Shown in pieces: positions 25,490-27,928 of a stretch of DNA of 64,000 nucleotides. Source of the DNA: an uncultured cyanobacterium (GTDB taxonomy: Bacteria; Cyanobacteriota; Cyanobacteriia; Cyanobacteriales; CAWUOF01); NCBI GenBank assembly GCA_963744145.1, contig CAVUSO010000001.1, positions 3,648,001 to 3,712,000 of the forward strand, in the 5' to 3' direction. The notes under the pieces are model-generated. The model was not told where the DNA came from. It searched no databases and saw only the letters and a program-made list of their open reading frames with translations. How positions within the stretch are numbered: the first letter of the stretch is position 1; each line of letters begins with the position of its first letter. The position numbers were made by a program, and so were the translations under genes.

Positions 25490-25719
25490 GCTATTTATAC
25501 CAATTAACTATGAAATTGCACTTAATCTGAGGTTGATCTGTTAGATCAGGGCAGGTTTATAATGGTGATCTGTTGGTGGCAAAATTGACTGGTGAACCTG
25601 CCCCTTGTATCTTTAAAGGATACAGATAATTGGACTACCAAGATGCAGGTACATCAAGGATTAGTGAGAAATCTAAAGAAACTAGAAAAGTTTTCGACCT
25701 CAGCTCAGTAGAGATGAGA

Positions 25720-25900
25720 AAGTGTGCTGAAGAACATCAGCAAGTGGTGAAGTTGGCCCGCCCCTCAGACCTCATAAGTCTGTTTTGTAGATAAGCTCCC
25801 AGTCGCTGATGACAGACGCACAGAAAACTCGACAGTATCTAAGGCACTCGTGGTCACGAGATAGCCTGTATTAACAAGGTTAGTTTAATGTCTGTCAAGT
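25720..25900 (+). ncRNA. Predicted IS110 bridge RNA (boundaries approximate)
   Basis: Guide segments CCCGCCCCT (25757) and GTAG (25787) match the insertion target; ACAGTATCT (25832) and ACAAG (25874) match the element ends; hairpins CAGAC/GTCTG, AGGC/GCCT, CTCGTG/CACGAG, TGACAGAC/GTCTGTCA. Confidence 0.75.
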
Positions 25901-25933
25901 TCTCACCCATCAACTCGACATCAGGAGAAACTT

Positions 25934-26921
25934 ATGACATCTACAGTCTTAGGAATAGACATCAGTAAAAAAGACTTTCATGTCGTTTTATTGAAACTGG
26001 ACTGTGGGAAAAAGCCAAAACCAAAAAAGTTTACTAATGATCTAGAAGGGTTTGAAAGTTTAGCACAATGGCTCAAATGTCAAGGTGTGGTAGAACTTCA
26101 TGCTTGCTTAGAAGCGACCAGTATTTATGGGGAAGCATTAGCTGAATTCCTCTACCAGGCTGGTTATCAGGTAAGTATCGTTAATCCAGCGCGGATCAAA
26201 GGATTTGCCAAAAGTGAACTCCTGCGAACGAAAACCGACGCGGTAGATGCAGGCTTAATTGCGCGTTTTTGTGTGGCGATGAAGCCGTCATTTTGGAAAC
26301 CAACAGCACCGGAAGTTAAGGAATTACAAGCCCTACTCAGACGACTAGAATCCTTCATCGAAATCGCGCAACAGGAGCAGAATCGGCTCGAAACCGAGAG
26401 CGAATCTGTCGCGCTGATAACGAGAAAGCATCTAGAATATCTCGCCCAACAACAAGCTGAGATCAAACAATTAATTCGCGACCATTTTGACCAACATCCC
26501 CATTTGAAAAAACAACGTGAGCTGTTGACTTCAATTCCGGGAATTGGCGAACAAACTGCGGCTGTATTGTTAGCTGAAATTGGTCGGATTACCGATTATA
26601 AAAATGCCCGCCAATTAGTTGCTTATGTTGGGTTAAATCCCTGCGAGCGGAGTTCAGGAACTTCAGTTCATGGTAAAACTCGCTTGTCTTGTATAGGCAA
26701 TACTCGACTGCGAAAAGCGCGCTTATATGCCCGCCGTAGTAGCGATGAGTCATAACCCATTACTCAAGGCAATGAGTGAGCGATTATTGGAGCGTGGCAA
26801 GGTGAAAATGCAGGTGGTTGGAGCCCTGATGCGAAAACTCCTACATTTGGCGTTTGGGATTTTAAAATCCCAAACACCTTTTGACCCCAATTATGCGAGC
26901 GCTACCCCTTTACCCGTCTAG
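25934..26921 (+). pseudogene. IS110 recombinase/transposase, frameshifted near 26720
   Basis: GIDISK, LEATS, KTDAVDA (DEDD), SIPGIG, SSGTS; RKAL-YMPA junction shifted into the 26727 ORF. Confidence 0.88.
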
Positions 26922-27928
26922 ATGGGATCTGGCGGGCGAAATCTCGCCACCAGAACATGTTCATCCCTCAACCAAGATGAACAGACGAAACTGACGACTG
27001 TGCATCGAGAGGATCTCGCTTAAACAACTACGGAACTGGTTGACTTCTATTCCCAGTATGGGTGAACAAACGGTGGCTCTATAGTTAGGGTCAATCCGTC
27101 GGGTTTCCAGTGCCAAAAATGCTCGCCTTTCTGCCCACAGTCACGATGCTTCACCACTCATTACTCCCATTAATGAGTGAGAGATGATGGCTGCGTGGGT
27201 CAGGTAAAAATCCAGGAGATTAGTGCTTTAATGGTAAAATCCCTAACCATATTTTGGCGATTTTCAAATCTGCTAAACTCTTTGACCCTAATTAGGCAAT
27301 TTGGCGATCGCTACCCCTTGACAAATCAAGACAGTATCTACCAATTTTATCCTCAATTTGCGGATTTCTGTAGTAGGGGCGGGTTCGCCCAGATTTTTGA
27401 AATTTACCAATTAATTAGAAAAACCCGCCCGGGTTCACCGAGATGTTTGACATTTACCTACTAATCATCAAAACCCACCCTCACCCACAGATCAATATAC
27501 ATCAATGTATCTTCATAGTGAATTGGTATTACCTATAAAAACTCTAAAATTAAGTCATCAAACAACGCTGTTGCAAAATCTAATGGGTAAGTGAACTTAC
27601 ACTATTTCGTGATTAAAATCCTCCCATAGGATAGCGGACTAATTAAGTATATCACAGATAATCTCCAAAATTCGCAATTTTCCCGTTTGCTCATACTTGG
27701 ATATTTGGATTATGGGCGATCGCACCAAAAATCCTAATCAGACTAGCCATTAATCTAATTACAATTGGTCTGGTCACGTCTTTGCGGACTTTTTCAACAA
27801 TCACCTATAAAGACTATCTAAAATAGAGAGCGATCATCATTAAGTAAGATCCAATCAAAATCCTAACTAAATCAATCGAGAAAGTCAAACATTAAATATC
27901 ATCCATAGTTAAAGTGTGAAATATCATA

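Follow-up and report, generated by a model that had tools for sequence, protein, structure and literature searches.

Does the 1.73-kb insertion at positions 25606-27337 of a 64,000-nt stretch of cyanobacterial DNA (hereafter the window, by which we mean the whole stretch that was analysed) carry its own guide to its target, and if so, for which site is that guide programmed? A sequence-only reading had proposed an IS110 element with a bridge RNA directed at a dispersed repeat. We consider it highly probable that the insertion is an IS110-family insertion sequence (IS) of the IS621 type, lying within one arm of a GTAG-tagged palindrome that resembles the repetitive extragenic palindromes (REPs), in a filamentous cyanobacterium. 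It is a clear further example of the bridge-RNA mechanism already described in Escherichia coli, and the mechanism itself is not new. As to the host, the highly iterated palindrome HIP1 (GCGATCGC), which we take to be a hallmark of cyanobacterial DNA, is found at 101 places in the window, where 0.27 would be expected.

The element is bounded by a CT dinucleotide core at either end, at 25604-25605 on the left and 27338-27339 on the right (coordinates refer to the forward strand unless stated otherwise). The left core copy, placed from the sequence and from the left junctions of relatives, is preceded by the left target half AACCTGCCC (25595-25603), which was read from the sequence and from the flanks of relatives and whose last 7 bases differ at 1 position from the CCCGCCC of the guide. 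It is followed by a non-coding left end of 328 nt (25606-25933) that opens with the right donor half TGTATCTT (25606-25613). On the other side, ACAGTAT (27331-27337) precedes the right core copy, after which comes the right target half ACCAATT (27340-27346), of which the guide GTAG reads AC only. Between the junctions lie the left end, a recombinase gene in two frames and a non-coding tail of ~410 bp. Removing the element restores the target and yields the circle junction exactly as the sequence-only reading had claimed, with both cores and their flanks where it had placed them. Terminal inverted repeats are absent, the CT core is found at both junctions, and no target duplication extends beyond the core; the same rule for core and junctions holds at 27 left and 32 right junctions of relatives.

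The protein bears out the assignment to IS110. The first frame (25934-26755, 273 codons) carries both domains of the family, DEDD_Tnp_IS110 (PF01548, 3e-26, 92.5 bits at a cut-off of 29) and Transposase_20 (PF02371, 2e-23, 82.8 bits at a cut-off of 21.3), both by Pfam, and its best solved relative is the IS621 transposase (8wt6_A, E 7.5e-57), followed by that of ISCro4 (6e-56). Counted from the printed midline, 109 of 258 aligned columns are identical to 8wt6_A (about 42%), among them GID, EAT, TDxVDA and the serine of SG, that is, the D, E, D, D and Ser that we take to be the catalytic set. Of these residues, S241 is named for IS621 in PMC11208158. The C-terminal 64 residues are encoded in a second frame (26727-26921). 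The shift between the two falls at 26717-26729, where the window copy has a net gain of 1 nt and reads RKARLY.. in place of the RKALYMPAVV of the intact 328-aa protein P0001 and of relatives, in which the site reads GCG TTG TAT ATG. P0001, encoded in a 7.63-Mb contig, agrees with the first frame at every residue (100%) as far as ...LRKA, and its residues 265-328 are identical to the second frame at 64 of 64 positions. The sequence-only reading was therefore right both about the frameshift and in its surmise that an intact copy may lie elsewhere. Since the shift removes the C-terminal 66 residues, the window copy is, as judged from its reading frame, non-autonomous; its ends and bridge RNA look intact, and the intact paralogue could move it in trans. 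The next closest proteins show 81% identity, so that in the sequences searched this lineage is known only from the source of P0001.

The left end can be read as a bridge RNA that has two internal loops, with stems on either side of each. The predicted target-binding loop (25735-25811) was placed by the register of IS621 as given in PMC11208158, by alignment and by covariance, and the donor-binding loop (25811-25896) by compensatory changes in its basal stem and hairpin. Within the target loop, which would be closed by the basal stem CATCAG/CTGATG, the left target guide CCCGCCCCT (25757-25765) matches the flank CCTGCCCCT at 8 of 9 positions; it is followed by the hairpin CAGAC/GTCTG (25766-25782), by the right target guide GTAG (25787-25790), which is the reverse complement of CT plus AC at 4 of 4 positions, and by the handshake bases AT (25791-25792). 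Within the donor loop, with the basal stem GACAGAC/GTCTGTC, the left donor guide ACAGTATCT (25832-25840) matches the right end and core at 9 of 9 positions, the hairpin AGGC..CTCG/CGAG..GCCT occupies 25842-25867, the 9-nt right donor guide ATTAACAAG (25870-25878) pairs discontinuously with CTTGTAT (7 of 7, with a 2-nt bulge), and the handshake GT stands at 25879-25880. All four guides had been proposed from the letters alone, with these same target matches and with perfect donor matches, and all four are found in the left end; ACAAG (25874-25878), which had been taken as the whole right donor guide and is the reverse complement of CT plus TGT (5/5), belongs to the longer ATTAACAAG. Ahead of the target loop, a conserved block (25669-25734) with ATCTAAAGAAAC and a GAAAC/GTTTY hairpin marks the point at which BLAST similarity to the relatives begins, and it is a possible 5' stem-loop of the same RNA.

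Could such an arrangement be a coincidence within the region of a decayed transposase pseudogene? The window copy is indeed frameshifted and has a degenerate tail. However, when the 328-nt left end was shuffled 200,000 times by mononucleotides, the 9-mer ACAGTATCT appeared in 286 shuffles and the target 9-mer with at most one mismatch in 1,891, while no shuffle (0) reproduced the four guides in order, and the arrangement recurs in the 38 further covariance-model matches described below. We find coincidence scarcely credible.

The relatives of the element allow the guide to be set against many junctions. One scan of genome contigs returned 46 loci (L001-L046), annotated merely as 'IS110 family transposase' or 'transposase', and the close relatives of the gene all belong to Microcoleus, Tychonema, Kamptonema, other Oscillatoriales and Chamaesiphon. 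A right end was recognisable in 32 of the 39 relatives examined, the sequence having ended first or the search pattern having failed in the other 7. All 32 read TTGACA-N9-ACAGTAT-CT, with AC after the CT in 31 of them; the contig of the remaining one, L005, stops after A. Left junctions were readable in 27 of 37 relatives (for most of the other 10, too little DNA lay upstream), and 25 read cccgccc-CT-TGTATCTT, with one mismatch each in L010 and L026. The different ends or unrelated targets that would have spoken against a common programme were not seen at these junctions. In addition, the unoccupied target AACCCGCCCCTAC is present as 23 exact 13-mers in 11 of the 46 loci; by simple arithmetic, chance alone would give far fewer than one such 13-mer in this amount of DNA. 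The sequence-only reading had proposed to test whether all copies sit in CCYGCCCCTAC. Among the relatives, 25 of 27 left junctions carry CCCGCCC exactly; the Chamaesiphon copies depart from this, sitting in ATTGCCC-CT-AC and carrying a correspondingly changed guide.

This departure is the strongest test of the reading. The Chamaesiphon element, with 54% amino acid identity, occurs as six identical copies in a single genome and has ATTGCCCCT as its left target guide; 6 of 6 copies lie between attgccc-CT on the left and CT-ac on the right, with the right end ACAGTAT-CT-ac, within a palindrome that reads GTAGGGGCAAT-TCATGA-ATTGCCCCTAC. The donor guides and the ends of the element are unchanged (ACAGTATC / ATTGACAAG). 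Guide and target differ together from the Microcoleus type at three positions, which is natural covariation of a guide with its target. As a separate observation, in two of the six Chamaesiphon copies (L032 and L033) the target palindrome carries in its loop an extra insert of ~60 nt (…GCGGCTCCCGCCCGTCGGG…), some 60-80 nt to the left of the IS and between GTAGGGGCAATTCATGA and ATTGCCC-CT, so that another small element shares the same REP.

An RNA with the proposed shape is also suggested by how the stems have changed. The proposed structure of 25 pairs (two basal stems and two distal hairpins) is 97.3% paired in 34 aligned sequences, against 22-34% in controls with slid partners, and 3 of its pairs change on both sides. 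A covariance model made from this structure finds exactly one copy in the window, 38 further matches in the relatives' loci with the same arrangement, and the full-length Chamaesiphon RNA (E about 1e-11). With Chamaesiphon added, in an alignment (A2) that was fitted to the model and is biased towards the structure, 8 pairs show changes on both sides, compared with 0-3 in the slid controls, and 0 of 500 shuffles reach 8. These compensatory changes, which keep the stems pairing, bear on another account of the left end, by which its motifs are DNA sites for subterminal binding of the recombinase and no guide RNA is involved. Guide-like motifs necessarily copy the ends, and the transcript is so far a prediction, both of which speak for that account. 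Against it, besides the compensatory changes, stands the left target guide, which copies the host target rather than the element's own ends and covaries with that target in Chamaesiphon; by analogy, the closest solved relative, IS621, works through exactly such an RNA. We consider binding sites without a guide very improbable.

The relatives show further variation that we report as such. Block substitutions fall exactly in the guide segments of their bridge RNAs (alignment A1), in a mosaic distribution: the right donor guide AAGG is replaced by TCTCG or TCTTG in 5 loci (L009, L015, L019, L037 and L043), the left donor guide ACAG by GCGG in 7 (L010, L017, L019, L021, L022, L025 and L046), with a G-T wobble to the unchanged right end kept, the core-reading CTTA by ATAC in 2 (L012 and L037), and GCTCCC by GCGGAC in 4 (L012, L019, L020 and L037). 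Because the ends of these relatives are unchanged, several such RNAs should not read their own donor. In the recombinase, where the gene is intact in only 16 of 32 relatives, codons 61-65, just after EAT, vary in two ways and on differing sequence backgrounds. In L002, L013, L016 and L021, SIYGE has become SN*VE with an in-frame TAG, the first three having a frame that apart from this runs on to the usual stop at codon 324, and L021 showing no other stop within the 325 codons that were scored; in L026, L027, L037, L042 and L044, a 7-for-6-nt replacement causes a +1 frameshift. These variants may be non-autonomous sublineages spread in trans. In L022, an insertion with a run of CCCTATG heptamers breaks the gene near its start, and L009, L015 and L037 each hold two element copies in inverted orientation within a few kb, which in L015 overlap at their 3' parts, so that right ends are missing there. 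Lastly, the left ends of relatives among L003-L040 contain a tandem 20-nt unit with HIP1 (ATCGTACCGACAATCAGGCG) between the terminus and the bridge RNA, in a number that varies by locus (18.2 copies in L020, at 2351-2714); the window copy lacks it. These arrays account for the left ends of the relatives measuring 324-696 nt.

For what site, then, is the guide programmed? According to PMC3733652, GTAG is the characteristic ending of REPs, and cyanobacteria have families that bear this tag. The site of the window element has this form, a short palindrome ending in GTAG/CTAC: an upstream arm GGGCAGGTT (25549-25557), a reverse-strand match, is complementary to the AACCTGCCC that runs into CTAC, and an opposite REP arm GTAGGGGCGGGTT (27373-27385) is the exact reverse complement of the sequence that the guide specifies. 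The copy that had been noticed near 27373 is therefore real and matches exactly. To the right of GTAGGGGCGGGTT follows a tandem of two 50-nt units (27380-27480); the element flanks form a cluster of REP-like units, and AACCYGCCC occurs 5 times in the window against 0.35 expected, 4 of the 5 flanking the element. The T that mismatches the guide at the insertion site is mirrored by an A in the partner arm, which indicates that the mismatch belongs to a variant of the REP and is not a later mutation. From these sequences, the exact match of the target guide is a REP-type palindrome with a GTAG tag, of a class already described in cyanobacteria. It may belong to one of the cyanobacterial families GTAG-12, GTAG-15 and GTAG-16. 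The claim that the repeat is dispersed stands for the genomes of the relatives, where alone dispersal is clear; within the window, those 5 matches and one exact 13-mer make it thin. A perfect, unoccupied GTAG-tagged palindrome, GTAGGGGCGTATT-GC-AATACGCCCCTAC, is found separately at 29767-29794, its arm differing from the left target guide at 2 of 7 positions.

The right end of the element turned out to be less simple than the sequence-only reading had it. In the relatives, the right end comes 989-999 nt after the ATG, with the stop codon of the gene within TTGACA. At the corresponding place the window copy has a decayed end (26901-26930), with TTTACC for TTGACA and ATGGGAT-CT for ACAGTAT-CT, which agrees with the family consensus at 23 of 30 positions. 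The right end that matches the guide belongs instead to a relic further out (26931-27339), a degenerate second copy of the 3' part of the gene with an internal deletion and many stops, clearly similar over 27022-27339; its last ~30 nt form the working right end, with TTGACA at 27318-27323, ACAGTAT and CT. Translated, 26961-27337 contains 4 stops and is therefore non-coding. Identity between the two copies is 71% for 26507-26612 with 27022-27127 and 75% for 26704-26930 with 27106-27339. Overall, the relic shares 62-69% identity with each of the relatives and 68% with the 3' part of the window copy itself, and on a tree it has a branch of 1.42 and joins no supported group, neither the window's 3' part nor the relatives.

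We infer that the mobile unit is the whole 1.73-kb composite, and that it arose by an old partial tandem duplication of the 3' module, of which all but the terminal ~30 bp has decayed, these presumably being kept by selection. Partial tandem duplications of IS110 modules whose boundaries correspond to just the left donor half are reported to be frequent (10.64898/2026.08.14.744561). The same report of tandem and one-sided boundaries also lends weight to a different history, in which the young IS is 25606-26930 only and 26931-27339 is what remains of an older related copy in the same REP: the newcomer would have entered the old left junction by its left-target half-match, and a later deletion would have taken the old left end and the 5' part of the old gene. 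The great age of the relic fits this, the left part being 100% identical to the intact paralogue, as does the failure of the relic to group with the window's own 3' part or with any relative. However, the donor guide ACAGTATCT matches the inner end ATGGGATCT at only 6 of 9 positions, against 9 of 9 at the outer end. The tail of P0001 reads ...ATPLPV as in the window copy, versus ...ATP in the 323-aa relatives, which means that the intact form shares the drifted inner end; by bridge-RNA rules the lineage could not have used that end, and this is a further reason to think that it depends on the outer one. The last 30 nt of the relic agree with the family right end at 29 of 30 positions despite about 35% divergence (P about 4e-5 at that divergence), as if the terminus had stayed in use, and the target logic AACCTGCCC-CT ... 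CT-AC fits the outer end alone. Two successive elements are thus an unlikely history of the locus, and a single composite unit is the one we carry forward.

How the composite might work follows the model of IS621. Excision as a circle would join the right end (…TTGACA-N9-ACAGTAT-CT) to the left end (TGTATCTT…) and so create a pair of -35 and -10 elements: TTGACA at 27318-27323 would be followed, after 16 nt plus TG, that is, an 18-nt spacer, by TATCTT (25608-25613). This spacing, which had been proposed beforehand, is confirmed in the sequence, and the promoter is predicted from consensus matches. TTGACA is kept in 32 of 32 right ends of relatives, and the Chamaesiphon element has TTGACT at 17 nt from TATCCT. 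The transcript would carry the bridge RNA (25735-25896) with a leader ahead of it. Its target loop would read CCCGCCC-CT on the bottom strand through the left target guide and CT-AC on the top strand through GUAG, its donor loop would read ACAGTAT-C(T) and CT-TGTAT of the circle junction, and the DEDD/Ser recombinase would exchange strands at the CT core. For the integrated copy, TTGACT in the left flank (25585-25590), 17 nt from the same TATCTT and matching the promoter consensus at 9 of 12 positions, is a speculative promoter; such sites are no commoner here than in shuffles. A promoter scan found no internal promoter ahead of the conserved 5' block. According to PMC11208158, the IS621 target loop begins at nt 34, and according to PMC13626964, IS621 is weakly transcribed from integrated loci by read-through. 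The target loop of the window element lies far from the junction compared with that of IS621, and a bridge-RNA transcript from the junction would have to begin with a leader of at least about 115 nt.

Several observations weigh against the reading as we have put it. The bridge RNA is predicted here from DNA. Folded as a single sequence, it takes the two-domain shape no better than shuffles do (z -1.0; 29 of 200 shuffles fold equally well), and Rfam 15, searched with 25300-27700 at E <= 1, gave no family match. For the basal stem of the target loop, covariation is absent, and in Chamaesiphon the stem is unpaired in that register; the bias of alignment A2 favours the structure. The left target guide has one C-A mismatch to its own insertion site, and in the window the 13-mer has one exact occurrence plus near-copies, a thin dispersal. 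The -10 element of the junction promoter scores only 4 of 6 with its 18-nt spacer, and between the left terminus and the target loop lie 129 nt in the window copy, against as many as about 500 nt in relatives. The duplicated 3' module is seen in the window copy alone and in 0 of the 32 relatives with a right end, and the scan of genome contigs for other copies gave none closer than 81% in amino acids.

If the reading holds, what does the element add? IS621-type elements may, we suggest tentatively, be specialists of REPs across phyla, in which a fixed module (the CT core, GUAG as right target guide, the handshake dinucleotides and the donor loop in full) reads both the unvarying ends of the element and the CTAC (GTAG) tag universal to RAYT-type REPs, and only the 7-nt left target guide is retuned to the stem of the host's REP; we hold this to be somewhat less probable than its negation. 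The constant reading of CT-AC in IS621, the Microcoleus type and the Chamaesiphon type, three lineages from which we draw it, appears to coincide with the REP tag. The decayed duplicate suggests that only about 30 bp of the right end are needed, this stretch having apparently stayed functional while the original end drifted, and it would mark by natural selection how little right end the system requires. Were both points true, the P0001 recombinase should accept the IS621 donor loop unchanged and would be a bridge recombinase native to cyanobacteria; as the intact 328-aa protein is on record, the system can be tested as a tool in these organisms. The known mechanism is left unchanged by the element, and its composite right end is a small variation on a described phenomenon. 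What it offers is a clean example from nature of how bridge RNAs are programmed beyond the Proteobacteria: across three lineages (IS621, the Microcoleus type to which it belongs, and the Chamaesiphon element), the donor loop and the reading of CT-AC stay the same, and the left target guide alone varies, matching in each the host's own GTAG-tagged palindrome.

The surroundings of the element hold a few further features. Directly left of the REP cluster, on the reverse strand, is a PemK/MazF-like toxin gene (24978-25489, Pfam 6e-11), and a small gene that overlaps it upstream has a weak DUF2281 match below the cut-off; together they probably form a type II toxin-antitoxin pair. On the forward strand, 0.6 kb right of the element, 27929-28324 encodes a small protein with a GIY-YIG nuclease domain (Pfam 3e-8). 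At about 44576-44816 and at 49932-51132, HIP1 sites recur at exact steps of 120 nt, which suggests tandem 120-bp repeats (units of about 40 aa) inside one or two genes.

Among known systems, the nearest is IS621 of E. coli, with which our comparison rests on the alignment to the solved protein and on passages of papers rather than on IS621 DNA. Across 5,426 E. coli genomes, blastn with the element in full as query found just four 72-nt matches (78%), of which none was annotated as IS621, and PLSDB plasmids searched in distant mode gave 5 partial records (5-10% of the query), namely two Leptolyngbya IS110 genes and three Klebsiella matches. Among the papers found for bridge RNA, IS110 and cyanobacteria, none treats such an element, judged by titles and the openings of abstracts, and none of the listed matches for the repeat motif concerns cyanobacteria. 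To judge by its title, the study of Choi et al. 2003 reportedly places the IS621 target at the CTAC end of a REP palindrome. The wild-type target of IS621 is given as ATCAGGCCTAC in PMC11208160, and its donor ACAGTATCTTGTAT is printed as the core of a dDNA oligonucleotide in PMC13396178; the donor that the sequence-only reading had named is the same, and it fits the residue numbering in PMC11208158. In that numbering, the left target guide of IS621 is A50-U58 (9 nt), the right target guide G77-G80 pairs with C8-C11, the handshakes are A81/U82 and G166/U167, the left donor guide is A123-C130, and the right donor guide consists of A157-U158 and C162-G165 with U159/U160 flipped out, a layout of 2 + 2 flipped + 5 nt. 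By these sources, the two elements share both protein domains, the CT core, the donor ACAGTAT-CT-TGTAT, a GUAG that reads CT-AC, the AU and GU handshakes, the discontinuous 9-nt right donor guide and indeed the whole donor loop, as well as a layout, here predicted from consensus matches, with the -35 in the right end and the -10 in the left. The sole difference among the guides lies in 7 non-core bases of the left target guide, ATCAGGC in IS621 versus CCCGCCC here. The proposal of a naturally retargeted bridge recombinase in another phylum therefore stands in that the guide differs, and is narrowed in that the retargeting is confined to these bases. Unlike IS621, the window element has its right end on a decayed duplicate of ~410 bp, a host of another phylum and a frameshifted gene, and its left end is 328 nt long, with ~129 nt ahead of the target loop, against 191 bp in IS621.

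Closer to home, the elements of Microcoleus, Tychonema and Kamptonema, at 72-81% amino acid identity, have the same guides, ends and target (AACCCGCCC-CT-AC); they measure 1.37-1.7 kb against 1.73 kb for the window copy, their right end directly follows a 323-aa gene, and their left ends carry the arrays of 20-nt HIP1 repeats that the window copy lacks. ISPpu9 and ISPpu10 of Pseudomonas putida likewise belong to the IS110 family and reportedly occupy a fixed site in REPs or intergenic repeats, and ISPpu9 has an extra module downstream of its transposase gene; their subgroup and host are other than those of the window element. Finally, the expanded IS110 loci of Hu et al. 2026 (preprint, 10.64898/2026.08.14.744561) resemble the window copy in having a partial module duplicated in tandem downstream of the transposase and in keeping, at the internal boundary, a sequence like the left donor plus CT, as at our inner end; the duplicate in the window differs from theirs in being ancient and decayed, with an outer end that was apparently kept working and no cargo.

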